A stretch of 64,000 nt of DNA from Candidatus Latescibacterota bacterium (GCA_965243025.1 CBDETY010000003.1:2688001-2752000); one strand, 5' to 3'; shown: positions 1-20,328, numbered from the stretch's first letter. The notes: generated from the letters alone by a model not told the origin. Made by a program: numbers and translations.

Positions 1-420
1 GGCCTCGACGGTTGCCCGGCCGCCGGCGGTCTCCTCCCCCCGGTACTCGATGCCCCCCTCGCGGTAGTAGCGCACGAAGCTGTCGAAGTTCCGCTCCTCG
101 ACGATGCGCCGGAAGGTCTCGACGAACTCGGTCCGCTCGGCTTCGCTGCGCCCCTCCCAGTGGTCCCCCAGCGACAGGCGGGCGAGCTCCACGAAGTCGA
201 AGGCGAGGTTGATGCGCTCCTTCACCCGCAGGCGGTGTTCGGCGGAGAGGCTGTCTGACGGGCTCGCAGCCAGTATGTCGCGGACCGCCCGGTCCTGGGC
301 CTCCAGGAAGGCGATGGCGTTTCCCGGCTCCGCCGCATCTCCGGCCGGTTCCTCCGCTCCCCCGGCGGTCCAGGCGGCCAGGACGAGGCCGGGCAGCAAC
401 AGCAGCATTCTCGATGACAT
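1..420 (-). CDS. MlaC/Ttg2D/HpnM-family periplasmic lipid-binding protein (runs off the window edge)
   Basis: Not in the ORF track. Manual translation from ATG at 420 gives MSSRMLLLLPGLVLAAWTAGG (signal peptide) ... RINLAFDFVELARLSLGDHWEGRSEAERTEFVETFRRIV, matching the MlaC FD-x3-AR-x2-LG-x2-W signature. GAGGGG RBS upstream. Confidence 0.85.
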   Translation of the reverse strand, partial: MSSRMLLLLPGLVLAAWTAGGAEEPAGDAAEPGNAIAFLEAQDRAVRDILAASPSDSLSAEHRLRVKERINLAFDFVELARLSLGDHWEGRSEAERTEFVETFRRIVEERNFDSFVRYYREGGIEYRGEETAGGRATVEA

Positions 421-431
421 GTAAACCCCCT

Positions 432-1823
432 CTATGGCCCCGGGGCGGCCCGGCCCGCGGCCGTCTCGGCAGGTCCCCGGCCCGCCGTGGGGGGCGGGTC
501 GGGCAGGCACTCGCAGTGGTTGCGCACTTCCCCCCTCTCGAGCGCCTCGCGCGTCCACACCCGCAGGTCGGCGTAGTGCGCCTCGGCGTAGGAATGGGTG
601 GAGTTGGCGTCTGTCAGTATGCCGAGACCGCGCGTCCGGCTTTTCGGTTCCCCCCCGTAGACGCGGTCGTAGTCGGCGAGCAGGTCGACCTGCTCGAACA
701 CCCAGCGCCCGAGGTTGTCCGCACCCGTCTCGACGACGAAGAACCAGGGTCTTGCAAAGCGCTTGCGGCGGTCGACCGTCCCCTCCGGCAGGGTCGTGCT
801 CCACACGTACTTGATCTGCCGGGGAATGCCCAGCCAGTTCTGGGAGAAGAAGACGTAGAGGCCGGCGGCGCTGTCGTTCGTGGGGCCGTAGCGCTCGTCG
901 CCTCCCGGGGGCAGCGACTCGGCCCGCCAGCACCAGGTCAGGATCGGGAACTTCCGGGGATTCCAGTGCGAAACCTTGAGGATGATTATCGAGCTGCCTG
1001 AATCCCGGGCCGCGAGGAAGCGCTGATCGCCGGCCGCGAGCACCGCGTACGGCTTGGGCTTGTCGCGGTCCTTGTCTCTCCAACCCCAGCCCTCGGGCAC
1101 GCGGCCGGACTCGGTGGTCGAGAAATCCTCGAGGACGACGTACGGCCGCTGCCGCATGCGCGCCTCGAGCACCGGCAGGGAGTACTCCTTTTCCAGGATC
1201 TCTTCGAAACGTCCCCGCAGCAGTTTGCTGGCGCTCCCGTCCCCGGTCTCGACGTCGACCAGCCGCCAGTCCCGCCCCTCGGCCCGCAGCTTCAGGGTCA
1301 GGGAGAGCGGCTCCCGGCCGGGCCCGGTCTCGGCTGCGACCTCCACCTCGGCGTCGCTGCCGCCCTGGTCGATCTCCACCAGGTGAAGGGAGGCCATCGG
1401 CGCCTCGCGGAGCCAGGCGGCGAGAGCGGAAATCCAGTAGGCGCGGAATTTCCCCTGCAGGCGCTCTTCGTGGCGGGCGACGAAGTCCTCGAGCTTCTCT
1501 TCGGACATGAACTTGCCGTACTCCTCAAGGGTTTCTTCGCAGTAGTCGCGGAACACCCGCCTGGTGAAGCGCTCGTGATCGACGCGGCGGCCGGCGAATT
1601 CGTCGAGGAAGCCGTCGAGGGAGGCGGTGGAATCGGCGAGGGCGGCGTTGAACCGCGCCAGGTCCTCTCGCAGCTCCACCCAGGCGGCCCGATCCGGTTG
1701 CCCCCCGGCGACGTCGCAACAGAGGGCGAGGGCTCCGCAAAGGGCGGCCCCCCTGCGCAGTGCCGGGTACACGAGGGCAAAAAGGCCGGAGCGACGGCGG
1801 GAATCCACGGCTGTCACGGTCAT
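432..1823 (-). CDS. MlaC-like domain fused to a C-terminal DUF3047 domain
   Basis: Start reassigned to MTVTAVD, which overlaps the TolC stop (ATGA). The N-half ends in MlaC-like LKLRAEGRDWRLVDVETGDGSASKLLRGRF. The C-half has DUF3047 motifs PILTWCWR, DDSAA-like NDSAAGLYV, IKYVWS, DLLADY and GILTDANST. Confidence 0.75.
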   Translation of the reverse strand: MTVTAVDSRRRSGLFALVYPALRRGAALCGALALCCDVAGGQPDRAAWVELREDLARFNAALADSTASLDGFLDEFAGRRVDHERFTRRVFRDYCEETLEEYGKFMSEEKLEDFVARHEERLQGKFRAYWISALAAWLREAPMASLHLVEIDQGGSDAEVEVAAETGPGREPLSLTLKLRAEGRDWRLVDVETGDGSASKLLRGRFEEILEKEYSLPVLEARMRQRPYVVLEDFSTTESGRVPEGWGWRDKDRDKPKPYAVLAAGDQRFLAARDSGSSIIILKVSHWNPRKFPILTWCWRAESLPPGGDERYGPTNDSAAGLYVFFSQNWLGIPRQIKYVWSTTLPEGTVDRRKRFARPWFFVVETGADNLGRWVFEQVDLLADYDRVYGGEPKSRTRGLGILTDANSTHSYAEAHYADLRVWTREALERGEVRNHCECLPDPPPTAGRGPAETAAGRAAPGP

Positions 1824-3181
1824 TCGAACGACGAGGTCATTCCCGCGGTCCGCTCCAGGCGGGCGACTGCAATGTTGAATTCGTACACCGCCTCGTAGAA
1901 CCCCTGCTCCGCCCCGGCGAAGGCCTCGAAAGCGCTGACCAGCTCCTTTACCTGCCCCGGGTCGAGCTCGTACTCGTCGCGGGCGGTCCGCAGCCAGCGG
2001 CGCGCGATGCTGCGCGCTTCCCGCGCCGACTCCAGTCCGTCCCGAGCGCGCTCCCAGTCGGCGAAAGCCCGCTCGATTTCCAGCCGGATACCCTGGACCG
2101 CTCCCCTCTCCTTGGCGCGCAACTGGTAGAGATCGGCCCGCGCCCGGGCCGCTTCCGCCTTCAGCAGTCCCCACTCGAACGACTGCCGCAGCCCGAGGAA
2201 GACCCCGCCGTTGAAATAGTTGAACTCGTCCTTGACGAAGGGATTGCGCTGGTCGGTGCGATTCGGGGCGACGGCGTAGCGCATCCCCCCGGTCAGGAAC
2301 AACTGCGGCAGGTAGGCTTTGGCGGTCGCCTCCTGCACAGCCTCCCTGGCGGCGATTCCCGCCCGCAACCGGCGCCAGTCGGGCCGCTTCCCGAAGGCGA
2401 GGGCGAACAGCGAATCCCGGGGCGGCACCTCGGACCGGGCCGGCTCGATCCACTCCTGCTCGAGCTCCAGCGGCGCATCCTCCGGGAGGCCGGCGGTCCA
2501 GGCGAGGGCCCGGCGCGCCAGCGCCTCCTGGTCGACGGCTTCCCGCCGGCGCCGCTCCAGCTCGATCAGGGCGAGCTCGAGCTTGTACGGCGCCGACAGC
2601 GGAATCGAGGGATCGTCCGGCGACACCCCCTCCCGGTGCGTGCGCAGCTCTTCACCCAGACGTTCGGCGAGGGCGGCGAGATCCCGGGCCGCGAGAAGGC
2701 CGTGGTACAGCTCCTTCACCTGCAGGGCGACGTCGAGCTCGACGCCGGCGAGCGACGACTCCTCCACCTCGACCCCGGCGGCGGCGGCTTCCCGCAGACT
2801 GCGCAGGTAGCCGAAGGTGTAGAGCGGTTGCACGAACTGCAGCTCGGTGCGGTTGAAGACCCCGAGGGAACGGAACCCGGTGGTGTCCTGCGGGGGGTTG
2901 AAAACGTCACCTTCGGCGTCCGGCGCCAGTCCCGAGGCGCTCTCGAGCCGCAGCCTCGGCAGCAGCCCGGACGCCCGGGCTTCGTCGAGACGGGCCTCTG
3001 CGCCGCGCACCCGCCATCTCCCCTCGGCGACTTCCGGGTTCTCCTCGAGGGCGCGCGCCACCAGTGCTTCCAGGGACCAGGGGGCCGCAGAAGGTGCCCG
3101 GGGAGGCTCCGGCCCCGAGGCCGACCCCGGACGCCCGGACATGGCGAGCGCCACCAGCCAGAAGAGAAGACGCGCCGGCAT
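1820..3181 (-). CDS. TolC-family outer membrane efflux protein
   Basis: Start MPARLLFW with signal peptide. SLEALVARALEENP, QPLYTFG, AYLPQLFL and C-terminal YEFNIAVARLERTAG are typical OEP repeats. Confidence 0.9.
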   Translation of the reverse strand: MPARLLFWLVALAMSGRPGSASGPEPPRAPSAAPWSLEALVARALEENPEVAEGRWRVRGAEARLDEARASGLLPRLRLESASGLAPDAEGDVFNPPQDTTGFRSLGVFNRTELQFVQPLYTFGYLRSLREAAAAGVEVEESSLAGVELDVALQVKELYHGLLAARDLAALAERLGEELRTHREGVSPDDPSIPLSAPYKLELALIELERRRREAVDQEALARRALAWTAGLPEDAPLELEQEWIEPARSEVPPRDSLFALAFGKRPDWRRLRAGIAAREAVQEATAKAYLPQLFLTGGMRYAVAPNRTDQRNPFVKDEFNYFNGGVFLGLRQSFEWGLLKAEAARARADLYQLRAKERGAVQGIRLEIERAFADWERARDGLESAREARSIARRWLRTARDEYELDPGQVKELVSAFEAFAGAEQGFYEAVYEFNIAVARLERTAGMTSSFE

Positions 3182-3183
3182 CG

Positions 3184-4242
3184 CTACCGCGGGGCGAGGT
3201 TGCCGCCGAGCCCCTCCGCCGTCCCGGCGGCGGACTCCCGGTCTTCGCCGAGGTGGACGCGAACCGAGGCGCTGGCGGCGCGGCCGAGGTACGTGAGAAA
3301 CAGCCAGCCGATCGAGATCCAGATGATCTTGCGCATGCGCTTGACGATGCCGAGGGAGAGTCCGAGAGCCGGGTTGAGTCCGAGGGTGATGAACAGGAAC
3401 ACCCCCCCTCCCTCGAGGACGCCGATGTTGGACGGCATGAAGAAGAAGAGGCTGTTGATGAGGACGGTGAGGGCCGTGATCAGGAAGGCGATCTCGAAAT
3501 CGGTTCCCGCTCCGAGGACCTCGAGAATGAGGTAGGTCTCGCAGGCTCCGAGCATCCAGCCGAGGGCGTGGAAGAACATCACCAGGGCGAAGCGCGTTTT
3601 GTGCTCCCCGTAGAAGCGGCCGATGCTGGCGTCGGTGCGGACCGCGCTGTCCATCTGGCGCGCCGCGAACTGGCCGAGGCCGACCGCCCGGAAGACCGCC
3701 AGCAGCGACGAGAACATGCTGCGGCGCTTGAGATAGAGGGCGGCCGTCAACACCGCGGCCAGCAGCCCGAGGCCGGCGAGGCCGGCCTTGACCGGAAGCG
3801 GCAGGGCCTGAGGCAGGTCCCAGTGGGCGACTACGAGGCCGAGGCCGACCAGGGTGAACATCAGGCCGGTGAAGATCTGCGCCGTCTTGTTGACCACTAC
3901 CGCGGCCAGGGACCGCGACACCGGGGACTGCTGCTTGAGCAGGAAAGCCTTGACAGGTTCGCCGCCGAGGTTGGCCAGGGGGGTCAGCTGGTTGACCGCC
4001 TCGCCGGCGAGCTTGGCCATGAACAGGGTGCGCAGGCGCGGCCGGAAGGCGTCCGGCGGGAAGGCGAAGCCCCAGGCGATGGAGTTGGTCACGTGCCACA
4101 GCAGGGCCAGCCCGAGGACGGCGGGGAACCACCCCCTCATCACCAGGAGGTTGTCGAGGATCTGTTGCAGGCCGAGAGTGCCGACGAGGTAACCGAGCAG
4201 CAGCAGGCCTAATCCCGGCAGCAGCAGGCGCAGGATCTTCAC
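3184..4242 (-). CDS. Lysylphosphatidylglycerol-synthase TM / flippase-like (UPF0104/HpnL-type) membrane protein
   Basis: GTG start overlapping the upstream stop. Multi-pass TM protein with GEAVNQLTPLANLGGEPVK and FMPSNIGVLEG motifs. Confidence 0.85.
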   Translation of the reverse strand: MKILRLLLPGLGLLLLGYLVGTLGLQQILDNLLVMRGWFPAVLGLALLWHVTNSIAWGFAFPPDAFRPRLRTLFMAKLAGEAVNQLTPLANLGGEPVKAFLLKQQSPVSRSLAAVVVNKTAQIFTGLMFTLVGLGLVVAHWDLPQALPLPVKAGLAGLGLLAAVLTAALYLKRRSMFSSLLAVFRAVGLGQFAARQMDSAVRTDASIGRFYGEHKTRFALVMFFHALGWMLGACETYLILEVLGAGTDFEIAFLITALTVLINSLFFFMPSNIGVLEGGGVFLFITLGLNPALGLSLGIVKRMRKIIWISIGWLFLTYLGRAASASVRVHLGEDRESAAGTAEGLGGNLAPR

Positions 4243-5642
4243 GGAGCCGGCTCCTCGTACCCCGGTGCGCCCTCGACCTGCAGGCGGTGGGCGCTCAGCA
4301 TCTTGCGCAGGGAGATAAGCACCCCCAGGGCCAGCAGGTGGAGACCGCCCACGGTGTACCAGTAGAGGACGGCGAAGGCGTCCGCCAGGCAGCAGACGAG
4401 GAACACGAAGGAGAAGGAATCGCGCTTGGCAATGAAGGCGGAGGGCTCGAGAAGGCGATACATGAAACCCTTCTCGCTGTCGGGAACGTCCCTCGAGTAC
4501 CCGACCAGGTATTTCTGCAGCGACCCGCTGCGGGTCTTGAGGGCGTAGGTGTACATGACACCGAGAATGACGAACAGGGCTCCGACCGCGGAGAGGGCAA
4601 GGTATAGATAGAGGGGCTGGTCTCCGTAGATGCGCTGAATCCCGAACAGGAATCCGAGGTAGGCGCACAGGTAGGCGAAGTTGTCGGTCAGGGTGTCGAA
4701 CCAGGCGCCGAACTTCGACTCGGACAGCTGCACCCGGGCGATCTCCCCGTCGCAGCGGTCGAGGACCGCGGCCAGCTGCCACAGCACCCCCGCCAGGGCG
4801 AAACCGGGGTATTCGTCCGGCCGCGATATCAGCCAGGCCCCGGCAAGCCCGGGCGGCATGACGAACAGGACGGTCACGAGGTGGGGGGAGATCCCGGTTT
4901 CGATCAGCAGCTTGCTGACCGGAATCGACATGCGGGCGTTGAGGTGCCGGGATACGGGGCCGCTGGTCGCCTTGGTGACCTGGGAGAACAGCATCCCCTT
5001 GGCCTGCCGCGAGGAGCGGGAGTCGACCACCCGCCTCCACAGCGGCTCGGCCCTGGACACCGGGGCCGTTTCCACTTTCCGGCCGGCGCAGCGGCCGGCG
5101 AGGAAATCGGTCACCGCGGGGATGGCTGCCCGGTCCGCGGCCCCCGTGCCCGCGGCGGTCAGATCCGCGGCCCCGACCTCCGCACTGCAGAGAAAAGCTC
5201 CCGTCGCCACCGGACCGCCGGCGCCGTTGAGCGGTCGCAGCCGCGCCGTTCCGCTTTCGACCGCAAGGTGGAGAGCCGGATCCTGCCGGGGGGGAAGGGG
5301 GCTGGTCTGCACCACGAGGTCGGCCCCCTGCAGGCCGCGCCCGGTCAGCCGGGAAAGCGAGGTGTGGTGGTGGACGCAATCCCCCAGCAGGAGGAGAATC
5401 CCTTCGCCGGACGGGAATGGGAGGTCGGTCCCGGTGCCCCAGGACACGATCTTCAGCTGCAGGTCGAGCCGGCGGGTGACCTTTCCCAGCTTCGTCGCGG
5501 CGCCGGCGGGGACGAGGACCACGAGTCGCTCGATCCCGGCGCGCGCCATGGTGCGGATGCCGCGCTCGAGGAGGCTCAGTCCTGCGCAGCGGCGCTCCGG
5601 CCGCACTCCCCGGTCGAAAGCGAGAATGCCGTTGCGGATCAC
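4239..5642 (-). CDS. CDP-alcohol phosphotransferase with degenerate N-terminal nucleotidyltransferase-like domain
   Basis: Complete motif DRCDGEIAR-x8-GAWFDTLTD. N-terminal AGLSLLERGIRTMARAGIERLVV resembles an NTP-transferase fold but lacks GxGxR. Confidence 0.9.
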   Translation of the reverse strand: MIRNGILAFDRGVRPERRCAGLSLLERGIRTMARAGIERLVVLVPAGAATKLGKVTRRLDLQLKIVSWGTGTDLPFPSGEGILLLLGDCVHHHTSLSRLTGRGLQGADLVVQTSPLPPRQDPALHLAVESGTARLRPLNGAGGPVATGAFLCSAEVGAADLTAAGTGAADRAAIPAVTDFLAGRCAGRKVETAPVSRAEPLWRRVVDSRSSRQAKGMLFSQVTKATSGPVSRHLNARMSIPVSKLLIETGISPHLVTVLFVMPPGLAGAWLISRPDEYPGFALAGVLWQLAAVLDRCDGEIARVQLSESKFGAWFDTLTDNFAYLCAYLGFLFGIQRIYGDQPLYLYLALSAVGALFVILGVMYTYALKTRSGSLQKYLVGYSRDVPDSEKGFMYRLLEPSAFIAKRDSFSFVFLVCCLADAFAVLYWYTVGGLHLLALGVLISLRKMLSAHRLQVEGAPGYEEPAP

Positions 5643-6412
5643 GCCGGCTCCCGCGGGGGGGCGGATTCGGCGACCGCGGCCTCGAGCCGGGTGTAGCGGT
5701 CCAGCTGGCTGCGCACGTGGTCGAGGTCCGCGGCGGTGTCGACGTCGGCGCAGGGAAGGCGGCCGATGTCGCAGTAGCTGACGTGGCGGCCCTGGTCAAT
5801 TATGCCCTGTATGGCGCTCGGGAACAGGGACTGCATGGCGCCGTCGGCCATGACGCACTCTTCGAGTATGCCGCGAATCCAGTCCGCGCCGCGGCCGCTG
5901 AACCTCATGATGCCGACCGACTCCGCGGTGGTCTCGACGGCGCTGAGGTCCTTGCCGATGCGGACGATGCCGTCGCCCTCGATGGCGACCTTCATGTCCT
6001 CGTCGTCACAGGATTCCCGCCGGCGCACCATCAGGCAGCAGGGGGAATCGGAGTGCGCCAGCAGCGGCAGCGCCGCGGGACTGAAGACGTTGTCCCCGTT
6101 GATGAGCAGGAAGTCCCCGTCCATGTGCGAGCGCGCCGCCCACAGGGAGACCAGGTTGTCGGCCACCTCGTGGAAGGGATTGGAGACCAGGTGAATCCCG
6201 ATGCTCCCCGGGTAGGCCTCCGCCGCCCGGCGAACCTGGTTCATGCGGTAGCCGCAGACCAGCACCGCCTCGCCGACTCCTGCGGTCTCGAGATTGCGCA
6301 GAAGGCGCTCGAGAATGGTGGCGTCCCCGATGGGCAGCAGGCACTTGGGCAGGCTGTCGGTGAGCGGCCGGAGCCGGCTTCCGCGGCCGGCTGCGAGAAT
6401 GATCGCTTTCAC
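5639..6412 (-). CDS. Phosphocholine/inositol-phosphate cytidylyltransferase family (LicC/IPCT-like)
   Basis: GTG start. KAIILAAGRGSRL...PKCLL, INGD, EDMKV, ESVGIMRF and ADVDT motifs. Confidence 0.9.
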   Translation of the reverse strand: MKAIILAAGRGSRLRPLTDSLPKCLLPIGDATILERLLRNLETAGVGEAVLVCGYRMNQVRRAAEAYPGSIGIHLVSNPFHEVADNLVSLWAARSHMDGDFLLINGDNVFSPAALPLLAHSDSPCCLMVRRRESCDDEDMKVAIEGDGIVRIGKDLSAVETTAESVGIMRFSGRGADWIRGILEECVMADGAMQSLFPSAIQGIIDQGRHVSYCDIGRLPCADVDTAADLDHVRSQLDRYTRLEAAVAESAPPREPA

Positions 6413-6776
6413 ACTACCGTGTCGGCGGGGCGAAGCTGAGGTTCGGAACGGAGGTCTGACAGCCGGTGAAAAACACACTCGAAGAAGGCCGAAAAACCGC
6501 CGCAACCCGGATGGACCAGGCGCCGGTGAGCGCTACCGTGGGCTGGTGAAATAAAGGGCCGCTCCTCTTTCGAAGCAGCCCCGGGCTCATGTTTGAATAA
6601 GCCAATAAAATGACGGCGGGTCAATGAGATAGCCGGAATCGAAAGGCTCATTCGGGGAGGGGTCCGAACAGCCGGGCGACCCCCTCAAAGCGGCCTGGAA
6701 CGGGATTCGAGAGACAGCCCCGGAAAGCTCGCCGCCTGTCCGTATATTTTTATCCTGCGCTTCCGGAAAGGCATGC

Positions 6777-7964
6777 TTGAACCGGGAAGAACACAGACTG
6801 CTGATCTTCGGAACCGACTTCCCCCCCGAGTCGGTCGGAACCGCTTCGTACGCCCATGCTCTCGCCACGGGAATGCAGCGACGCGGCGTGCAGGTGACCG
6901 TTCTGACCCGGGATTGCTCCGTGGCCGCGAGCGAGGCGTTCGACCGCGCCCAGCCCTTCTCGGTGATCCGCATGCGGCGGCCCCGGGGCGTTCCCGAGGC
7001 CTACCTCGCCGCCTGGGGCGGCCTCAGGCGAGCCCTGGCGGCAACCCGGCCCCACTGCCTGTGGACGACCAACGGCATGGCGGCGCGGGTCGCCGGCCTG
7101 CCGGGAATAGACCGCCGCCTGCCGGTAATCTCATCGATTCGCGGCACCGACATCCGCACCCGGCTGCCGGGGAGAGGTCCCTGGCGCAGGCTGGAGAGCA
7201 TACCCCAGCGCCGCTGCTACCGGCGCTCGGCCGCCATTGCCGCGGCGAGCGGGTACCTGCGCGAAGCCGCCATCTCCAAGGGGGTCGCCGGCGAACGCAT
7301 CTTCGTCTCCTTCTCGGCGGTCCCGGAGGAGCTGCAACAAATCGCCGACGCAGGCCCTGCCTCCCCCACCCTGGCCGAACGGGGTGCCACGGGCGCCTCC
7401 ATTCTGACCGTCGCGCGCCTTACCGATCAGAAGAAGCTCAATGTGGCGATCGCCGCCATGGAGATCGTGCAGCGCCGCTTTCCCGGAGCCGGCTACACCA
7501 TCGTCGGCGACGGCCCGGAACGCCCCCGCCTGGAGGAGCAGGCGCGGCGCCGGGGGGTGGGCGTCCGCTTCGCCGGGCAGGTCCCGGCCATGTCCGCCGG
7601 CCTGTGGCAATTCTACCGCTGCGCGGACCTGTTCCTGCTGACCAGCAGCGGCGAAGGGCTGGCCAACGTCCTGCTCGAGGCCGGGGCCTTCGGCCTCGCC
7701 AGCGTCGGCCCCTGCTCCGGGGGGGTGCCGGAAGCTCTGGTGGACGGCGAAACCGGCCTGCTCGCCGACGCGGAGGATCCCCGGCAGGTGGCCGGCAAGG
7801 TCATGCAGCTGCTCGCCGACGGCGGCGAGCGCCGCCGCATGGGGGACCGCGCCAGGCGCCGGGTGCGCTCCCTGTTCAGCGTCGACGCCCTCGCCGACCG
7901 CTGCCATCCCGTCCTCGAGTCCGTGCTCGCAGGGGCCCCGCGGGCCGTTGCAGGCAGCCGCTGA
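6777..7964 (+). CDS. Glycosyltransferase family 4
   Basis: DFPPESVG, ILTVARL..KK, IVGDGP, EGLANVLLEA (Ex7E) and GGVPEAL.DGETG. Confidence 0.93.
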   Translation: MNREEHRLLIFGTDFPPESVGTASYAHALATGMQRRGVQVTVLTRDCSVAASEAFDRAQPFSVIRMRRPRGVPEAYLAAWGGLRRALAATRPHCLWTTNGMAARVAGLPGIDRRLPVISSIRGTDIRTRLPGRGPWRRLESIPQRRCYRRSAAIAAASGYLREAAISKGVAGERIFVSFSAVPEELQQIADAGPASPTLAERGATGASILTVARLTDQKKLNVAIAAMEIVQRRFPGAGYTIVGDGPERPRLEEQARRRGVGVRFAGQVPAMSAGLWQFYRCADLFLLTSSGEGLANVLLEAGAFGLASVGPCSGGVPEALVDGETGLLADAEDPRQVAGKVMQLLADGGERRRMGDRARRRVRSLFSVDALADRCHPVLESVLAGAPRAVAGSR

Positions 7965-8829
7965 ATTGGCCGATCCCGACGCCGGCCCCGGCCTCCGCCT
8001 GAAAGCCGCCCTGCTCAAGAGAGCCCCGGTACGGAGGGCCGCGGCGGTGCTCGGACGCGACCTCGAACCCCGGCGGTGGATCTTCGTCATCGGCTGCTAC
8101 AACTCCGGCACCACCCTGCTGAGCCGCATGCTCTCCCGCCACCCCGGAATCGCCGCGCTCCCGAGCGAAGGGGTGCGGTTCGCGGACGGACTGCCCCGCC
8201 CCGAGGAGTTCGGCTGGAACCGGATGTGGTGCCGCTGCCTCGACCGGGTGCGGCTCGCCGGGGATCCGGGGGCGGCGCAGCGGGCGCGGCGGATCAAGCG
8301 GCAGTGGTCGCTGCTATACCCCAGGAACGCCCCCAACCTGCTGGAGAAGTCGATCGCCAACAGCGCCAGGATCCCCTTTCTCCACCAGTTCTTCCAGCCT
8401 GCCTTCTTCGTCTACATCATCCGCAACGGGTACGCTGTTGCCGAGGGGATCCGGCGCAAGGCGCTTCCGGGCAAGTGGGGAAACCCCGAATACCCGGAGC
8501 GCTACCCGATCGAGCTGTGCGCCGAGCAGTGGCGGGCATCCGACGACCTCGTCGAGGCGGACCGCGTCCATACGGAGCGGTTCCTCCGCATCCGCTACGA
8601 GGAGCTGACCGCGGCCCCGGAGGCAACCGCGGGAAAGGTGACCGGCTTCCTCGGACTGGAGCCGCTGCCGGCAGGGGCGCTGCTGTCGCGGTGGCGCATC
8701 CACGGGGTCGAAGCAGAGATCCGCGACATGAACCGCGACAGCATCGGCAGGCTTTCCGCCGACGACATCGCCGCCATCGACCGGGTCGCCGGAGCAGCCC
8801 TGGCGAGGAACGGGTACCAGGCGGAATGA
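7948..8829 (+). CDS. PAPS-dependent sulfotransferase
   Basis: 5'-PSB loop FVIGCYNSGTTLL, LLEKS, 3'-PB IIRNGYAVAEG and RYEEL. Overlaps the GT4 stop. Confidence 0.9.
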   Translation: MQAAAELADPDAGPGLRLKAALLKRAPVRRAAAVLGRDLEPRRWIFVIGCYNSGTTLLSRMLSRHPGIAALPSEGVRFADGLPRPEEFGWNRMWCRCLDRVRLAGDPGAAQRARRIKRQWSLLYPRNAPNLLEKSIANSARIPFLHQFFQPAFFVYIIRNGYAVAEGIRRKALPGKWGNPEYPERYPIELCAEQWRASDDLVEADRVHTERFLRIRYEELTAAPEATAGKVTGFLGLEPLPAGALLSRWRIHGVEAEIRDMNRDSIGRLSADDIAAIDRVAGAALARNGYQAE

Positions 8830-8956
8830 GGAGCCTGAATGCCCGGGACGCCGCTCCCCCCGGAGGGCTCCGTCGTGGAAGGGACCTGCCGCGGCGGAGA
8901 CGGGACACTCGAGGATCCCGGGTCCGCTCCATGCCTGGAAACGGGATGGTCGCCTG

Positions 8957-10585
8957 ATGCGGGACAGCATGGAGCGCGGAACCGGGATGCCCGTGAAGGA
9001 GGGGGCCAGGCTCAAGGTCGGCCTGCTGCTGCCGGCGAACGGCTCCGTAGCCTGGGTCGAACACCTGGTCCGCGAGATCGCCGCCGCCCCGGTCGCCGGG
9101 ATCGGCCTGATCGGTGTAGCGGAACGGATGGGCGCCGGGCTCGGGCCGCGGGCGGCCTTCTTGTGGCGCTTGTACACCGCGCTCGACCGCGCTGGCGCCC
9201 GCATCCGCCCGGACGCCTTCGCCATGGCTGACCTTTCCGCATCCGTCCCCGTGGAGATCCAGCGCTTCGATCCGCGGGAGCCCCTGCCTTCCAGCGACGG
9301 TCTCGACGTCCTCCTGCTGCTGGGGGAGGCGGCCGGGATACGCGGGCAACTGCACCCCCCTCGCTACGGCCTCTGGTGGTTCGCCGGCGGCTGCGGCGCG
9401 GGAACGGCTGAGGTGGTCTCGGGGGCGGCCGCGACCGCGACCACCCTCTGGGCGGCGCTGCCGGACAAAAGGAAGCATCCGATCTGCCGCTCCTGGTCTC
9501 GAACCAACGACAAGTCGGTCTGGAGAAACCGCCAGCGCCACTGCTGGAAGGCCGCCCACATGCCGGCGCGCAAGCTCAGGGAGCTCCACCACCTGGGCGC
9601 CGCTGCCCTCGCCTGTGCGGGTGGACCGCCAGGGAAGTCAGCGGAGGCAGCTTCCGACAGCGAGGAGGTTGCCGGCCCCGGGAACCTCGAGACCGCGGCG
9701 TTCGCTTTCAGGCTGGCGCGGCGCGCCCTGCGCGGCGCCGTCGAGACAACCCTCTACCGGCCCCAGTGGTGCCTCGCGTACGAGCGCGACCCGGAGCCGG
9801 CACGCCTGAGCCCGGGCCGGTTGCGGCGTTTGATTCCCCCTGGGGACCGCTTCTGGGCCGACCCGTTCCCGGTCGAGGTCGACGGGCGCTGCTTCGTCTT
9901 CGTCGAGGAATGGCTGTACCGCCGTGGCAAAGGGCGCATCTCCGTGCTCGAGCTCGAGGGGGAAAACGTCAGGGAGGCCGGGACCGCCCTCGAGGCGAGC
10001 TTCCATCTATCGCACCCGTTCCTGTTCCGATGGAATGACGAGTTCTACATGATTCCGGAGAGCGGCCGCAACCGGCGCGTCGAGCTGTACCGCTGCCTGT
10101 CCTTCCCTTTGCGCTGGGAGCGGGAAAGGGTGCTCCTCGACGGCCTGTGCGGAGTGGACGCCACCCTCGAGGAGATCGACCGCACCTGGTGGATGTTTCT
10201 CAACATCGGCAAGCGCGGGATCTCCAACCACGACGAGCTGCACCTGTACTACGCGGAAAGCCCTCTCGGTCCCTGGCGGGAGCACGCCGGCAACCCGGTC
10301 AAGTCGGACGTGCGCTCGTCGCGGCCCGCCGGGCGGCTGATCAGGGACAACGGGCAACTGCTGCGTCCGGCCCAGGACTGCACGCCGCGCTACGGCAGCG
10401 CCATCTGCCTCCACCGCATCCTCGAGCTCACCCCCGACCGCTTCGCCGAGGAGCCGGTGGCCCGCCTCGAGGCCGATGCCGTCCCGGGGGCGGACCGCAT
10501 CCACACCCTGAACGGCTGCGGCGGCATCAGGTTCATCGACTTCCAGCGCCGGCGCCCGCGTATCGGCTGGAATTCGCATGACTGA
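8957..10585 (+). CDS. Degenerate formyltransferase-like domain plus GINT1-N-like five-bladed beta-propeller
   Basis: FWADPF, FVFVEE, HLSHPFLF, YMIPES, VDATL, HAGNPV, RPAG, RPAQDC and HTLN are characteristic of the glucosamine inositolphosphorylceramide transferase N-terminal propeller family. The start could be the second Met. Confidence 0.75.
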   Translation: MRDSMERGTGMPVKEGARLKVGLLLPANGSVAWVEHLVREIAAAPVAGIGLIGVAERMGAGLGPRAAFLWRLYTALDRAGARIRPDAFAMADLSASVPVEIQRFDPREPLPSSDGLDVLLLLGEAAGIRGQLHPPRYGLWWFAGGCGAGTAEVVSGAAATATTLWAALPDKRKHPICRSWSRTNDKSVWRNRQRHCWKAAHMPARKLRELHHLGAAALACAGGPPGKSAEAASDSEEVAGPGNLETAAFAFRLARRALRGAVETTLYRPQWCLAYERDPEPARLSPGRLRRLIPPGDRFWADPFPVEVDGRCFVFVEEWLYRRGKGRISVLELEGENVREAGTALEASFHLSHPFLFRWNDEFYMIPESGRNRRVELYRCLSFPLRWERERVLLDGLCGVDATLEEIDRTWWMFLNIGKRGISNHDELHLYYAESPLGPWREHAGNPVKSDVRSSRPAGRLIRDNGQLLRPAQDCTPRYGSAICLHRILELTPDRFAEEPVARLEADAVPGADRIHTLNGCGGIRFIDFQRRRPRIGWNSHD

Positions 10586-12269
10586 AGGGGAGGGCAGCGG
10601 AAAACGGCCGCCCGCGGCAACGGACCAAGAGGCGGCGCACCGGGATCCCGACACTTCCTTCGGCGACATCAGGGACCTCGCCGGCGGCGCCCTGGTGACC
10701 TTCGTCGGCAAGGCGGGCCGCCTGTCGCGGGCCGCCTTCCTCGCCGTGGTCGCCCTCTTCTGCGGCCTCGAGGTGGTCGGAGCCTACTCGGTCGCCTGGG
10801 GGTTCGTCGCCACGGTGAACCGGGTGGCGCGCTTCGGGCTGCAGCGCGGCGTCGTGCGCTTCCTGATCGCCGGCGGGGTCCGCGGCGGGGCCCAGTCGGG
10901 GCGGGCCGCTTCCGGCCCCGCGATCGACGCCGCCCTCGCCGCTTCGCTGCTGATCGGGGCCCTGGCGAGCGCCGCGGTGGTCGCCGCCCTGCTGCTGGCG
11001 ACCGGGCAGGTCGCCGCCTTCTACCACAAGCCAGGGCAGCTGCCCCTGCAGGAACCGCTGCGCATCCTCGCCTGGTCCGCCCCCTTCGTCACCGCCACAT
11101 GGATCTTCCTCTCGGCGACGCGGGCACTTCGCATCATGCGCTACGCCGTGTACGTCTTCTCGATCGCCGGCCCCCTGCTGCTGCTGGCCGGGAGCCTGGG
11201 GATCGCCCTGATCGGCGGTGGGGCGGAGTGGACGAGCCCCGGGCAGCAGCGCGCCGCCCAGTCCGGTTTCGCCGTCGCCGTCGCCTGGGTGCAGCTCGGC
11301 ACCGCGGCGGCATCGGGCGTCCTGGCCGCCGGCTGCTTCAGCCGGCATTTCTCGCTGCGGCGGAGCCTGACCCGGCTGCGGGGAGCGCCGGTCGCGGCCA
11401 TGGCCCGCTTCTCGGCGCCGGTCATGGCCGCCGACGTGATGGTCGCCGTCCTGACTCAGCTCGACGTGCTGATGCTCGGCAAGCTCGTCAGCCTCACGGA
11501 GGTGGGGATCTACTCGGTGGCGCGCCGGGTCGCCAGCTCGATGCTGAAGGCGGTTCAGGCCTTCGACCCGGTTTTCAGCTCCGTGGTCAGCGAGCTGTCC
11601 CACCTGCGCCGGGAGGAGGAGGTCGCCCGCCGCTTCGTCGTCATATCGCGCTGGCTGCTGACCGTCAACCTGCCGATTTTCGCCATCTTGTTTATCGTTG
11701 GTGACAGCCTTCTGGGCTGGGCCGGCGAAAAATGGGTGGGCGAGCCGTCGCAGCTGGCGGTCGGGCTGAAGATCCTCTACGTCCTCGCCGTGGGGATGCT
11801 GCTCCAGGGCACCTTCGCCCTCATCGAGCCGCTGCTGGCCATGACCGGCCGCCCCGGTCTCAACACCTTCAACAACAGTCTCTGGCTGCTGGCGAACTTC
11901 GCGCTGAATCTCTGGTTCATAACAGAATTCGGGGTTGTCGGAGCGGCCTACGGAGCGACCCTGTCGATGTTCTTCGTCAACTCCCTGCGGGTGCTGCAGG
12001 TCTGGCGACTCCACCGCATCCGCCCCCTCGACCGCAGCCAGGTCAAACCGCTCGCGGCGGCCGCCGCCGCGGCCGGAGCGGCCTGGCTCGCATCTGCGGC
12101 CTCGGCCCCCGGATCCCTGCCCGGTGTCGCGCTCGCGTGTGCAACCTTCATCGCCGCCTACGGACTGCTTTTGTGGAGGTTGGGCCTCGAGCAGGAGGAC
12201 CGTCAGCTCCTGCAGCGCGCCGTCCGCAGCCTCGGCTCGAAGCTGGCGGGCCCCCGGAGCTCCCGGTGA
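10578..12269 (+). CDS. MOP-superfamily (Wzx-like) polysaccharide/lipid flippase
   Basis: About 13-14 hydrophobic segments. FGLQRGVVRF, DVLMLG..EVGIYSVA and FGVVGAAYGA. Confidence 0.88.
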   Translation: MTEGEGSGKRPPAATDQEAAHRDPDTSFGDIRDLAGGALVTFVGKAGRLSRAAFLAVVALFCGLEVVGAYSVAWGFVATVNRVARFGLQRGVVRFLIAGGVRGGAQSGRAASGPAIDAALAASLLIGALASAAVVAALLLATGQVAAFYHKPGQLPLQEPLRILAWSAPFVTATWIFLSATRALRIMRYAVYVFSIAGPLLLLAGSLGIALIGGGAEWTSPGQQRAAQSGFAVAVAWVQLGTAAASGVLAAGCFSRHFSLRRSLTRLRGAPVAAMARFSAPVMAADVMVAVLTQLDVLMLGKLVSLTEVGIYSVARRVASSMLKAVQAFDPVFSSVVSELSHLRREEEVARRFVVISRWLLTVNLPIFAILFIVGDSLLGWAGEKWVGEPSQLAVGLKILYVLAVGMLLQGTFALIEPLLAMTGRPGLNTFNNSLWLLANFALNLWFITEFGVVGAAYGATLSMFFVNSLRVLQVWRLHRIRPLDRSQVKPLAAAAAAAGAAWLASAASAPGSLPGVALACATFIAAYGLLLWRLGLEQEDRQLLQRAVRSLGSKLAGPRSSR

Positions 12270-12985
12270 CGCGGCGGGCCATCGTCCTGGCGGCCGGGGC
12301 CGGCACCCGGCTCAACCCGATGACCAACGGACTGCCCAAGTGCCTGGTGCCGTTCGGAGAGCGGCGCCTCGTCGATCTGCAGGTGGCGGCGCTGCAGGCC
12401 GCCGGGGTCGAGGAGATCGTCCTCGTGGTCGGCTTCGAGGCCGACCAGGTCCGGCGCCACTGCCGGGCCCTGCCCGCGGTCCGCTTCGTCGACAACCCCG
12501 ACTTCGGCTCGACCAACAGCATCTACTCCCTCTGGCTCGCCCGCGCCTTTCTCGACCGCGAGACCTTCCTGTTCAACTGCGACATCGTCTTTCACCCGGC
12601 CCTGCTCGAACGGATGCTTGAGGACGGGATGCCGAACGCCGTCGCCGTCGACTCGCGGGTGCGCCGCGTCGCCGGGGAGATGAACGTCCGCATCCGCGAG
12701 TCGGGCGCGGTCGCGGCCATCGGCAAGGACCTCGACCCGTCGAGCTGCCAGGCGCAGAGCGTGCAGCTGGCGAGGTTCGACGCCGCCGGGGCGCGCTCCG
12801 TGGCCGCCGAGGTCGAGCGCCTGGTGGCCGGACGGCGGAAGGACGCGTTCCCGACCTCGGCGTACGGCCCCCTGATCGAGCGCGGCGAGCTGTTCGCGGT
12901 GGAGGGAGGGGACCTGCCCTGGGCGGAGATCGACTCGGTCGACGACTACAACGCCGCAATCTCCACGGTGCTGCCGCGGTTGTGA
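12266..12985 (+). CDS. Second LicC/IPCT-like cytidylyltransferase
   Basis: GTG start overlapping the flippase stop. AIVLAAGAGTRL...PKCL, TNSIYSL, FNCD and WAEIDSVDD. Confidence 0.9.
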   Translation: MTRRAIVLAAGAGTRLNPMTNGLPKCLVPFGERRLVDLQVAALQAAGVEEIVLVVGFEADQVRRHCRALPAVRFVDNPDFGSTNSIYSLWLARAFLDRETFLFNCDIVFHPALLERMLEDGMPNAVAVDSRVRRVAGEMNVRIRESGAVAAIGKDLDPSSCQAQSVQLARFDAAGARSVAAEVERLVAGRRKDAFPTSAYGPLIERGELFAVEGGDLPWAEIDSVDDYNAAISTVLPRL

Positions 12986-13004
12986 CCCGCCCCGGGGGCT
13001 TGCG

Positions 13005-14255
13005 ATGATCACCGCCTGGATCGACGCCACCCGGCCGGCGGCCTGCTGGCACCTTTGGGGGATGTCGCTGGTCGAGAGGCAGCTGCGCCAGCTCGCCCTC
13101 AGGGGGGCGGCCACGGCCCGAGTTGCCGTTGTCGAAAACGGCGCGCCCCAGATCCGCGCCGATTTCGCGAGACGCTGCGACCTCGACATCCGTTTCCACC
13201 GGGTGAGCCCCGACGCCGGCTTCGGGGCATCTCTGGCAGCGGTCGAATCCCCTTTGCTCCTGCTCGAAGGAGACGGGGTGTACGACGACCGCGTCCTCGA
13301 CCACCTGCTGGCGGCCGGTCCGGGGAACTCGGTGGCGGGAGGCGGTCTCTGCGCCGCCTGGGCCGATACCGGGCTCGCCGCCGAGCTGGCGCGGGTGCCG
13401 CCCGAAGAGGGCGGGTTTCCCGGGCCTGCCCTGTGGAAGGCGATCTCGGAACAGACACGAGTGACCGACGCCGCCCGGCTCGACTCCTACGTACCGGAGC
13501 TCAGGCTCACCATGCCCCCGGTTGTGTTTCGGCTCGAGCGCCCCGGACAGCTGGGCGAGGTCGAACGGCTGATGTACCGCCGCACCTTCAAGGGGGTCAT
13601 CGACATCGTCGCCAGCCGCGGCTACTACCACCCGGTCCGCTGGATCACCCGCCTCCTGGCCCCCACCGCGGTCTCCCCCAACAGCGTCACCGCCCTGTCG
13701 ATCGCCGCCATCTGGCTGGCGGCACCCTGCTTCGCCCTGGGAATGCCGGGGGCCGGAATCGCCCTGGGCTGGGCCGGCGTGGTCGCCGACAGCGTCGACG
13801 GCAAGCTGGCGCGCCTGACCCTGAACCTCAGCGACCGCATGGGTGCGGTCGAGCACGTCTCCGCGGTCCCCGCCCTGGGGCTCTGGCTCCTCGCTTTCGG
13901 GGGCTGGGTGAGCGACTGGAAGCTGCTGACCTCCTCAGTTCCGGCGGTCGCGACCTGGGTGCTGCTCGCCTGCTTCGCCCTGGACAAGGGGGTCAGCGGC
14001 GGCTTCCGCAGGCTCACCGGCAGGGAGATCTTCGACTACGGCCGCGGCGACGCCCTGTTCCACCCTTTCGCCGCCCGGCGCAACATCCTCCTGCTCATGA
14101 TGACCGCCGGGGTGGCCGCGGACGCGGCCGGAGCCGCTCTCGCGGCGATGTCGGCCTGGATGGCGGCGACCCTTCTGTTTCACGGGCTGCGGGCGCTCCA
14201 GGTGGCAGCTGCCCGGATCGGGAAGCGGCCGGAAGGGAGGGCATCCGAGGGGTGA
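13005..14255 (+). CDS. Second CDP-alcohol phosphotransferase-like protein with degenerate N-terminal domain and incomplete motif
   Basis: SPNSVT and DSVDGKLAR are present, but the distal part reads GAVEHVSA. N-terminus LWGMSLVERQLRQL. Confidence 0.8.
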   Translation: MITAWIDATRPAACWHLWGMSLVERQLRQLALRGAATARVAVVENGAPQIRADFARRCDLDIRFHRVSPDAGFGASLAAVESPLLLLEGDGVYDDRVLDHLLAAGPGNSVAGGGLCAAWADTGLAAELARVPPEEGGFPGPALWKAISEQTRVTDAARLDSYVPELRLTMPPVVFRLERPGQLGEVERLMYRRTFKGVIDIVASRGYYHPVRWITRLLAPTAVSPNSVTALSIAAIWLAAPCFALGMPGAGIALGWAGVVADSVDGKLARLTLNLSDRMGAVEHVSAVPALGLWLLAFGGWVSDWKLLTSSVPAVATWVLLACFALDKGVSGGFRRLTGREIFDYGRGDALFHPFAARRNILLLMMTAGVAADAAGAALAAMSAWMAATLLFHGLRALQVAAARIGKRPEGRASEG

Positions 14256-14379
14256 TCCCTGGCTGCAATACCCCATTCCAGGTCCCGTTCAAGAACGGAA
14301 GGTGCCATCCCCGCTGGACCGGTCATGGCCGCAAGGCCCGAGGAATGGAGGAATTGTCGAAACCAGGCATCCCCATTCG

Positions 14380-17189: not shown

Positions 17190-17193
<4 letters not shown>
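14380..17193 (+). CDS. uvrA: UvrA-family excinuclease ATPase (divergent, possibly a paralogue)
   Basis: Two [10 protein letters not shown] Walker A motifs, LSSGE and LSGGE signatures, two DEP Walker B motifs, three CxxC pairs and ENNLREIDV. Confidence 0.88.

Positions 17194-20328
<3,135 letters not shown>

Follow-up and report, generated by a model that had tools for sequence, protein, structure and literature searches.

The IPCT/DIPPS enzyme type is known for heat-protective solutes. IPCT/DIPPS of A. fulgidus (AF0263, PDB 4MND) and AF2299 (PDB 4O6M) each combine a cytidylyltransferase-like N-domain with a CDP-alcohol phosphotransferase of the six-TM type that has the full signature motif. 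A putative CDP-inositol, Kennedy-like cluster for inositol lipids in Bacteroides vulgatus and Prevotella, which in the available excerpts of Heaver et al. (2022; PMC9246714) is itself unconfirmed, also contains an NTP transferase and a CDP-alcohol phosphatidyltransferase, with a lysyl-PG-synthase-like membrane protein nearby and genes for myo-inositol-1-phosphate synthase (MIPS) and a HAD hydrolase adjacent. In lipid transport, both the HpnN–HpnM(–HpnS) hopanoid trafficking model, as set out in the accessible part of a preprint (PMC12324291), and the Mla pathway place an HAE3/MMPL inner-membrane transporter beside a MlaC-fold periplasmic shuttle. Mycobacterial sulfolipid-1 with MmpL8 (PMC3318749, in excerpt) offers an analogy of concept only, in that a glycolipid is sulfated in the cytoplasm and its export depends on an MmpL protein; the enzymes are unrelated to those considered here, since sulfolipid-1 is built on trehalose and carries polyketide acyl chains, and the envelope is of a different type.

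In this study, a locus was analyzed within a window of 64,000 nucleotides (the whole stretch of DNA considered) from a Candidatus Latescibacterota bacterium (GCA_965243025.1 CBDETY010000003.1:2688001-2752000). The source is an uncultured sponge-associated bacterium; carriers of the cluster are sponge- and coral-associated, and the sequence is present in marine and sponge samples. Genes were called by GC3 phase, and their products were then searched with Pfam and NCBIfam profiles. Six minus-strand genes (the left arm) and six plus-strand genes (the right arm) point away from a common divergent intergenic region of 364 bp (6413–6776), in which no sigma-70-like site and no Rfam family was found. 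Neighbours within an arm overlap by 4–17 bp or are spaced by 11–127 bp; NTP-A starts with GTG at 6412, and the GTG start of the HpnL-like gene overlaps the upstream stop as GTGA. These observations bear out the 12 genes, order, tight coupling and gap described in an earlier sequence-only reading, and its family assignments stand for every gene except the last, which has no Pfam match and an incomplete catalytic motif. However, the extent given there (1–14255) was too short. The left arm runs on past position 1 of the window: 140 N-terminal codons of the MlaC gene lie inside and 206 bp beyond the left edge (full ORF 211 aa), a 792-aa MMPL gene, the kind of upstream MMPL/RND transporter that the reading had foreseen, lies 10 bp past it, and a 1093-aa TPR/FG-GAP/ASPIC gene comes after that, both outside the window. 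The cluster consists of two conserved modules, A and B. Module A is the left arm together with NTP-B and comprises the nucleotidyltransferase (NTase), an AF2299/DIPPS-like transferase, an HpnL-like flippase, an outer membrane factor (OMF), a MlaC–DUF3047 fusion, MlaC, MMPL and TPR. No paper on this combination was found in the literature searched, in keeping with the earlier failure to recognize it as a described pathway.

The two stand-alone nucleotidyltransferases, NTP-A (5639–6412, minus strand; NTP_transf_3, 53.5 bits) and its paralogue NTP-B (12266–12985, plus strand; NTP_transf_3, 62.6 bits), are 35% identical and both contain GxGxR. The best PDB match of both is the phosphocholine cytidylyltransferase LicC (50 and 59 bits) rather than IPCT (31–32 bits). 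CDPOH-A (4239–5642, minus strand) combines a degenerate cytidylyltransferase-like N-domain with a CDP-alcohol phosphotransferase domain (CDP-OH_P_transf, 34.5 bits; cut-off 22) that carries the complete D1xxD2GxxAR..GxxxD3xxxD4 motif; D295, D298, G299, A302, R303, G312, D316 and D320 are invariant in all 18 aligned sequences. Its nearest solved relatives are AF2299 and IPCT/DIPPS, the best PDB matches with 88 and 87 bits, and PIP synthases, while CEPT1/CHPT1 were unmatched in the PDB search at E ≤ 0.01. Given the full motif and the GxGxR of both NTases, CDPOH-A, NTP-A and NTP-B look catalytically competent. In contrast to IPCT/DIPPS and AF2299, GxGxR has been lost from the N-domain of CDPOH-A and from that of CDPOH-B, this activity being supplied by the separate NTase genes, and the genes share an operon with others of flippase type or for lipid transport. 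In the distant fusions L029, L035 and L043, GxGxR is on the same polypeptide as the transferase.

CDPOH-B (13005–14255, plus strand) is a divergent CDP-alcohol-transferase homologue without a Pfam match at E ≤ 0.01; its best PDB matches are again AF2299 and IPCT/DIPPS (38–54 bits). Aligned to AF2299, it retains DxxDGxxAR, with D3 replaced by Glu, D4 by Ala and an invariant His following D3, so that the PF01066 signature (D1xxD2GxxAR...GxxxD3xxxD4) is present in CDPOH-A and absent from CDPOH-B. Ala occupies the catalytic-base (D4) position in the window protein and in all six same-family homologues among 16 aligned sequences; the more remote L029 group keeps D4 (D3 being Glu), and L035 and L007 keep both D3 and D4. 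According to the available part of one study, a D-to-N exchange at the D4 position nearly abolishes the activity of a PIP synthase (PMC4634129). Of the two CDP-alcohol transferases named in the earlier reading, CDPOH-A is upheld, and CDPOH-B is a homologue that lacks the catalytic base.

These enzymes might instead produce a soluble polyol-phosphodiester osmolyte of the di-myo-inositol-phosphate or glycerophosphoinositol type in the manner of IPCT/DIPPS, with transport genes that are unrelated or that export the solute. IPCT/DIPPS (NF041135) is indeed the best family match of CDPOH-A (83 bits; NTP-A 59, NTP-B 49 and CDPOH-B 21 bits), and distant NTase–CDP-OH fusions match it over the full length with 240–243 bits. 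Furthermore, MIPS is encoded in the genome, the sequence occurs in marine and sponge samples, and the nearest characterized relatives of the transferase, Af2299 and AfDIPPS, are not lipid-processing enzymes according to the accessible text of PMC4634129, a point that also counts against a lipid product. However, none of the four enzymes reaches the equivalog cut-off of 580 bits and the distant fusions also fall far under it, and across many genomes CDPOH-A is linked to RND/OMF genes, DUF3047, carriers of the MlaC fold and a protein of flippase type. In locus L025, an 810-aa protein unites NTP_transf_3, CDP-OH_P_transf and LPG_synthase_TM, and its gene has OMF/RND genes on one side and a DUF3047 gene on the other; a transferase fused in this way to a flippase-type domain speaks for a product that is a lipid. 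An osmolyte is accordingly regarded as improbable. The balance tips modestly towards a Kennedy-type phospho-alcohol lipid that would be glycosylated and sulfated, then flipped and ferried to the outer membrane.

As the alcohol, inositol or glycerol is the probable choice. The genome encodes MIPS (PF07994, 342 bits; C3:4706161–4707381), as the sequence-only reading had suggested looking for, but in a monocistronic, unlinked gene ∼2 Mb from the cluster rather than beside it. MIPS is present in 62 of 63 family members, and in 6 of 80 loci it lies no more than 10 kb from shorter homologues; it was found in only two of five genomes with distant operons and in none of the 87 genomes that were sampled from other families, 49 of which carry a homologous fusion-type gene. 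Its presence is not specific evidence, because the genome also holds a PIP/AIP-synthase-like gene that stands alone (170, 153 and 136 bits, each under its cut-off). Choline, another candidate of the earlier reading, is unlikely, since no match to a choline kinase family was found. Compared with the B. vulgatus-type cluster in the excerpts available (PMC9246714), the locus has MIPS at a distance instead of adjacent, has no HAD gene in or beside the cluster, and adds MMPL, MlaC, DUF3047, the OMF and module B. No acyl- or lipid-anchor enzyme was present in the cluster.

The remainder of the left arm, all on the minus strand, is concerned with membrane and transport proteins: an HpnL-like/MprF-flippase-domain-like membrane protein (3184–4242; LPG_synthase_TM, 94 bits), a TolC-family OMF (1820–3187; Pfam OEP, 119 bits in two stretches), the MlaC–DUF3047 fusion (432–1823; a weak MlaC match and DUF3047 with 99 bits) and a MlaC/HpnM-like periplasmic lipid carrier (1–420, continuing beyond the edge; Pfam MlaC, 44 bits), in which a Sec signal peptide was read from the sequence. 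In the AF2 model of the fusion (pLDDT 85), the N-domain resembles MlaC/Ttg2D structures (Foldseek TMt 0.65–0.73), and the DUF3047 C-domain is a β-sandwich with fold matches to CBM16, GH11 and GH12-type sandwiches. Docking of MMPL with MlaC scored 0.39, against 0.00 for the best of three controls, with at least 84% of contacts agreeing between runs and partner pLDDT of at least 75; the docking mark was passed by 116 of 157 solved complexes and 2 of 215 mismatches, passes at ≤0.60 comprising just 18 of the 157 solved complexes and both passing mismatches, so that the model weakly supports an interaction. Hopanoid (HpnL/HpnM/HpnN) or sterol (Bst) trafficking would account for matches of the MMPL protein to HpnN (310 bits) and BstA (188 bits), of the full 211-aa MlaC ORF to HpnM (63.5 bits) and of the HpnL-like protein to HpnL (139 bits). 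However, all of these lie under the curated cut-offs (752, 1400, 160 and 196, respectively), and the squalene–hopene cyclase family PF13243 had no match in the 96%-complete genome, which makes such a role extremely unlikely. Unlike the HpnN–HpnM(–HpnS) model, as far as the available preprint text (PMC12324291) describes it, and the Mla pathway, the locus has a TolC-family protein and a DUF3047 fusion; neither the MlaFEDB ABC complex nor MlaA was found among the 14 cluster proteins.

The right arm, on the plus strand, begins with a GT4 glycosyltransferase (6777–7964; Glycos_transf_1, 99 bits, and Glyco_transf_4) and a PAPS-type sulfotransferase (7948–8829; Sulfotransfer_3, 82 bits) with an SGTT sequence that we take to be the 5'-phosphosulfate-binding loop; APS kinase is encoded in the genome. 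These are followed by a protein with a Rossmann-type N-domain and a five-bladed β-propeller (8957–10585; GINT1_N, 135 bits), the AF2 model of which (pLDDT 86.6) matches GH117, GH43 and GH130-type propellers and the family of which returned >2,000 homologues in the homologue search. A MOP/Wzx-type flippase (10578–12269; Polysacc_synt_3, 35 bits; cut-off 23) with ∼8 hydrophobic segments precedes NTP-B and CDPOH-B. The presence of a MOP flippase, GT4, sulfotransferase and OMF is also what a Wzx/Wzy-type capsule or exopolysaccharide locus would show, but there is a single glycosyltransferase, Wzy, Wzz and Wza/OPX are absent from the 14 cluster proteins scanned, and what is conserved at the core are lipid carriers and enzymes of CDP-alcohol chemistry; a capsule locus is thus very unlikely.

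For the favoured phospho-alcohol lipid, the following route can be proposed. NTP-A, and probably NTP-B likewise, would activate a phospho-alcohol with CTP, the likeliest substrates being myo-inositol-1-phosphate or glycerol phosphate. CDPOH-A would move the phospho-alcohol onto a lipid acceptor at the cytoplasmic membrane face, and the HpnL-like protein may flip its product. Still in the cytoplasm, the head group would gain a sugar and sulfate through CDPOH-B, GT4, the sulfotransferase and the propeller protein, before the MOP flippase carries it, thus extended, across the inner membrane. The HAE3-type MMPL pump would extract the lipid, and two MlaC-fold carriers, one of them fused to the lectin-like DUF3047 sandwich, would ferry it through the periplasm to the TolC-family protein. 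A bolder, doubtful extension is that the product corresponds, in bacteria, to the glycosyl-inositol-phosphoryl lipids of eukaryotes: a membrane lipid with a sulfated sugar and with phospho-inositol (or phospho-polyol) units, one or two in number, that derive from CDP-alcohols, delivered to the surface by an undescribed trans-envelope conveyor (HAE3 RND pump, MlaC carriers, DUF3047 lectin-like domain and TolC-family protein) kept in several phyla related to Bacteroidota, which in sponge symbionts might mimic or engage the host sulfated matrix. If the lipid reading is true, the locus would define a class of envelope lipids not described before and a new path by which lipids reach the outer membrane, both in this uncultured phylum and outside it, with the IPCT/DIPPS enzyme type recruited to membrane biogenesis. 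It would also provide the first functional context for DUF3047, for HpnL-like proteins outside hopanoid producers and for bacterial GINT1_N-type propeller proteins. A sulfated surface glycolipid would then be a candidate host-interaction molecule, as its carriers are sponge- and coral-associated.

The conservation of the two modules was compared in 80 fetched loci. The order NTP-A, CDPOH-A, HpnL, OMF, MlaC–DUF3047, MlaC, MMPL is the same in eight of them (L006, L008, L009, L010 and L015–L018), with the TPR gene next in seven of the eight. Of 151 genomes that represent the phylum in the sample, 121 have a CDPOH-A homologue, among them all 63 of the window's family, and the homologue lies within 6 kb of a DUF3047 match in at least 52 genomes of the phylum sample, relatives inside one family not being independent observations. 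NTP-B is divergent to the left arm in nine loci, and CDPOH-B adjoins NTP-B in seven. Module B was also found as an operon of its own in four other genomes, from three other genera (CDPOH-B, GT4, sulfotransferase, GINT1_N, MOP; 4/4 loci examined), with proteins 34–57% identical to those of the window.

The arms could be two unrelated systems that are neighbours in this genus alone, the left making and exporting a phospho-alcohol lipid and the right supplying a MOP-flipped, lipid-linked sulfated sugar that decorates another envelope molecule (protein, LPS or glycan). In line with this, the independent five-gene operon has unrelated neighbours (aldo-keto reductase, Lar_N, aminotransferase) in all four loci examined, several genera have the two modules far apart, and a sulfotransferase homologue was found in only 19 of 65 family genomes. 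CDPOH-B was found in none of 20 genomes of genus g8, which retains just CDPOH-A, HpnL and DUF3047. However, in seven distant loci CDPOH-B and MOP stand on one strand between a true NTase–CDP-OH fusion and OMF/DUF3047, NTP-B keeps its place next to the left arm in loci that have module B at another site (L009 and L010), and module B of L092–L095 has no nucleotidyltransferase of its own. Two unrelated systems are therefore considered unlikely, though less so than an osmolyte. The sequence-only reading is upheld in part: in its gene families apart from the last, in the MMPL transporter and in the co-occurrence of the arms, the cores of which adjoin in seven related loci and interleave in one operon in the seven remoter ones, contrary to the refuting outcome it had named, arms that never occur together. 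Its single 12-gene unit gives way to a separable right arm, choline is unlikely, and its second transferase lacks the catalytic base. By coordinates, the 1.2 kb spacing between the sulfotransferase and CDPOH-B genes of module B recurs in four further genomes.

The twelve genes that the sequence-only reading had arranged in two divergent arms were recovered in that order, together with the 364 bp gap between them (6413–6776), by gene calling from the third-position GC phase in this window of ∼70% G+C and subsequent checks against Pfam and NCBIfam. The left arm, on the reverse strand, comprises the stand-alone nucleotidyltransferase NTP-A (5639–6412, with a GTG start at 6412), the CDP-alcohol phosphotransferase CDPOH-A (4239–5642), an HpnL/LPG_synthase_TM-like protein (3184–4242, the GTG start of which overlaps the preceding stop as GTGA), a TolC-family OEP protein (1820–3187), an MlaC–DUF3047 fusion (432–1823) and an MlaC-like gene with its start at 420, which crosses the left edge of the window and stops 206 bp beyond it. 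The right arm, on the forward strand, comprises a GT4 glycosyltransferase (6777–7964), a Sulfotransfer_3 protein (7948–8829), a GINT1_N protein (8957–10585), an MOP flippase (10578–12269), a second stand-alone nucleotidyltransferase, NTP-B (12266–12985), and CDPOH-B, a divergent CDP-alcohol-transferase homologue of 416 amino acids (13005–14255). In the gap, a promoter scan returned no sigma-70-like sites, and the single terminator-like hairpin with a T-rich tail (6555–6582, reverse strand, upstream of NTP-A) is not above the chance expectation of 0.7. No Rfam families were found in positions 1–15000.

The 20 kb to the left of the window (G000:C3:2688001-2752000 in the source genome) was also read. 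A 792-amino-acid MMPL gene starts 10 bp after the MlaC gene, its product scoring 310 bits against HpnN (cut-off 752), 201 bits against HAE3 and 188 bits against BstA, and is followed by a 1093-amino-acid exported TPR/FG-GAP/ASPIC protein and then by PBP1A. The original observation is thus confirmed, and the cluster grows from 12 to 14 genes. Its right limit is at 14255, beyond which lie genes for a UvrA-like protein (a double ABC ATPase of 963 amino acids), an M24 peptidase and MetRS (14302–20328). The same housekeeping genes border the cluster in four of the loci fetched for comparison (L008, L009, L010 and L016), so its chromosomal position is conserved and, unlike a mobile island, it looks vertically inherited.

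The 14 cluster proteins were compared by tblastn with 80 fetched loci centred on CDPOH-A, and the two arms, proposed from the window to form one cluster, were indeed found together in other genomes. The seven left-arm genes occur in the same order and on the same strand in eight loci (L006, L008, L009, L010 and L015–L018), in seven of which the TPR protein comes next. Nine loci have NTP-B in divergent orientation relative to the left arm, seven have CDPOH-B next to NTP-B and four have the MOP flippase there. In L017, a BcrAD_BadFG/DUF2229 CoA-enzyme activase (1164 amino acids) and a 624-amino-acid protein without a Pfam match are inserted between the two arms (2649–8040).

Seven more distant loci (L026, L027, L029, L030, L035, L036 and L043) carry a CDPOH-A homologue, the MOP flippase, CDPOH-B, the TolC-family outer membrane factor (OMF) and DUF3047 on one strand. 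A Pfam scan of three of them (L029, L035 and L043) revealed a genuine fusion of NTP_transferase and CDP-OH_P_transf (483–522 amino acids), for which the best family is IPCT/DIPPS (240–243 bits across the full length), accompanied by CDPOH-B, MOP, MlaC–DUF3047 and OEP; in L029 and L035 only the DUF3047 part of MlaC–DUF3047 was detected, and L035 has a separate MlaC gene. MMPL is present in L035 and L043. Radical SAM proteins lie inside or at the end of these distant versions (L035:11442-12440, L043:11442-12464 and L029:19972-21081), with a SPASM domain on the L035 and L043 copies and a type I phosphodiesterase additionally in L029; the window's version has neither a radical SAM protein nor this phosphodiesterase. 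One genus of the window's family (g8) keeps only the trio of CDPOH-A, HpnL and DUF3047 (L011–L013 and L020). In L025, an 810-amino-acid protein that fuses a nucleotidyltransferase, a CDP-alcohol transferase and LPG_synthase_TM is encoded with OMF/AcrB-type RND genes on one side and a DUF3047 gene on the other, and this fusion provides the strongest argument that the transferase product would be a membrane lipid.

Homologues of CDPOH-A (∼460 amino acids) come from Candidatus Latescibacteria/Latescibacterota and Handelsmanbacteria MAGs, the nearest genome record being a Latescibacterota MAG at 85% identity. The CDPOH-A profile matched 121 of the 151 sampled genomes of the phylum: all 63 in the window's family (460–770 bits) and all of those in two sister families (30/30 and 19/19, mostly 207–234 bits), with no match among 28 genomes of seven other families. 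DUF3047 was found in 128 of the 151 genomes. Several MAGs labelled `Gemmatimonadetes' by NCBI (three counted) have genome coordinates identical to those of genomes that GTDB assigns to the same family as the window, so that the strong CDPOH-A matches represent one lineage rather than independent observations. Public record titles are thus an unreliable gauge of the spread of the cluster, as loci L009, L010 and L018 illustrate when set against genomes G043, G104 and others: their titles read `Gemmatimonadetes', and GTDB places them in a Latescibacterota family.

GT4, the sulfotransferase and GINT1_N are almost absent from the CDPOH-A-centred loci by tblastn. The view of these genes as recent strain-specific insertions was overturned by family-wide searches and by four fetched operons. 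CDPOH-B was found in 44 of 65 genomes of the family, spanning 16 of its 18 genera, and in none of the 20 genomes of g8. A sulfotransferase homologue was found in 19 of the 65 genomes, lying within 4.2 kb of CDPOH-B in ten of these 19, eight of the ten with a constant gap of 1.2–1.3 kb. At all four places fetched, an operon reads CDPOH-B, GT4, sulfotransferase, GINT1_N, MOP, with proteins 34–57% identical to those of the window and with unrelated flanks. The right arm is a separable module that joined the left arm in the window's genus; in genome G079 it is arranged as in the window. In L006, the closest MAG, an additional CDPOH-B paralogue (48% identical; 4521–5786) occupies the sulfotransferase position, and the right arm there also has a 291-amino-acid ORF without a Pfam match where the window has the sulfotransferase.

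In CDPOH-A the motif D1xxD2GxxAR..GxxxD3xxxD4 is complete, and its residues are invariant in 18 of 18 sequences. Among solved structures it matches AF2299 (88 bits) and IPCT/DIPPS (87 bits) best, and then PIP synthases; neither CEPT1 nor CHPT1 is among the PDB matches at E ≤ 0.01. The first ∼200 residues form a conserved cytidylyltransferase-like domain that lacks the GxGxR signature, which is present in NTP-A and NTP-B (paralogues with 35% identity) and in the distant fusions. CDPOH-B has the same two-domain build and retains DxxDGKLAR; in the window and its family, D3 is replaced by Glu and D4 by Ala. Among distant members, the L029 group retains D4 (with D3 replaced by Glu) and L035 and L007 retain both, and a His immediately after D3 is invariant throughout CDPOH-B. 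D4 has been described as the likely catalytic base, and a D-to-N substitution at this position in PIP synthase nearly abolished activity while retaining substrate binding (PMC4634129). Read against these data, the Ala at D4 suggests that CDPOH-B may be either a binding-competent pseudo-enzyme or an enzyme that uses the invariant His.

The nearest relatives of CDPOH-A all handle inositol phosphate or glycerol. In favour of inositol, a myo-inositol-1-phosphate synthase (MIPS) gene is present in the source genome and in 62 of 63 family genomes, and in six of 80 loci MIPS is no more than 10 kb from shorter homologues. These six include L066 and L081, where it accompanies a nucleotidyltransferase, joined in L081 by an HpnL-like gene. 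Against inositol, the MIPS gene of the source genome is monocistronic and ∼2 Mb from the cluster. Two observations weaken this co-distribution as proof of inositol. Firstly, a stand-alone PIP/AIP-synthase-like gene (206 amino acids; G000:C3:4916431-4917051, L090:1408-2028), scoring 170, 153 and 136 bits, all below the cut-offs, could consume the MIPS product; given this gene, the organism may also make ordinary phosphatidylinositol, which could serve as an acceptor for this cluster. Secondly, MIPS was found in none of the 87 sampled genomes of other families, of which 49 carry the homologous fusion-type gene. Further points against inositol are that MIPS was found in only two of the five genomes with distant operons and that LicC is the best PDB match of both nucleotidyltransferases. 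Glycerol phosphate, for which no special supply is needed, is a candidate alongside inositol; AF2299 binds CDP-glycerol (PMC4634129). Choline is disfavoured, despite LicC being the top PDB match of both nucleotidyltransferases, because the choline kinase family PF01633 has no match in the 96%-complete genome. The PEP-mutase family PF13714 has two matches in the genome and also matches in 11 of 14 control genomes, too widely to bear on the phosphonate idea.

A hopanoid reading of the Hpn-like genes was rejected: no squalene–hopene cyclase was found in the 96%-complete genome, so these genes do not serve hopanoids. The predicted structure of MlaC–DUF3047 (pLDDT 85) has an MlaC/Ttg2D-fold domain (TMt 0.65–0.73) and a β-sandwich resembling CBM16, GH11 and GH12 modules, which would suit a carrier of acyl chains that also recognizes a glycan head group. 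A second DUF3047 gene lies at G000:C3:1269582-1270082 and is not near any of the CDP-alcohol transferase genes detected. Docking of MMPL with MlaC scored 0.39 against 0.00 for the best control (run agreement of at least 84% and partner pLDDT of at least 75), which lends weak support to a possible pairing: 116 of 157 solved complexes reach the mark, as do two of 215 mismatches, but at scores of up to 0.60 it is reached by only 18 of the 157 together with both passing mismatches. The GINT1_N protein is predicted (pLDDT 86.6) to combine a Rossmann-type domain, homologues of which some sources name methionyl-tRNA formyltransferase, with a five-bladed GH117/GH43/GH130-type propeller. APS kinase is present in the genome, so that PAPS is available.

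Taken as a builder and exporter of a sulfated phospho-glycolipid or surface glycan, as first proposed, the cluster is partly supported: the two arms co-occur in other genomes, whereas the right arm is separable and we infer every substrate. It is best described as a conserved combination of a Kennedy-type head-group pathway, an RND/MlaC/OMF lipid route and a separable glycosylation–sulfation module. A full-text literature search (supplements aside) returned no description of this combination. Among the nearest published ideas are an unconfirmed `alternative' CDP-inositol cluster outlined for Bacteroides vulgatus (PMC9246714) and a hypothetical HpnN–HpnM–HpnS hopanoid route (PMC12324291); the pertinent passages of a paper on sponge Latescibacterota concern myo-inositol synthesis only (PMC12993501). 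The stretch, or parts of it, was traced to sequencing runs of 12 studies, among them metagenomes from sponge, coral and marine samples. Contigs from the RNA library of one sponge metatranscriptome span portions of the two arms and bridge several gene junctions, with ∼90–98% identity. Contigs do not prove transcription and reveal neither strand nor level, and the library may contain DNA, so they are only a hint that the cluster is transcribed.
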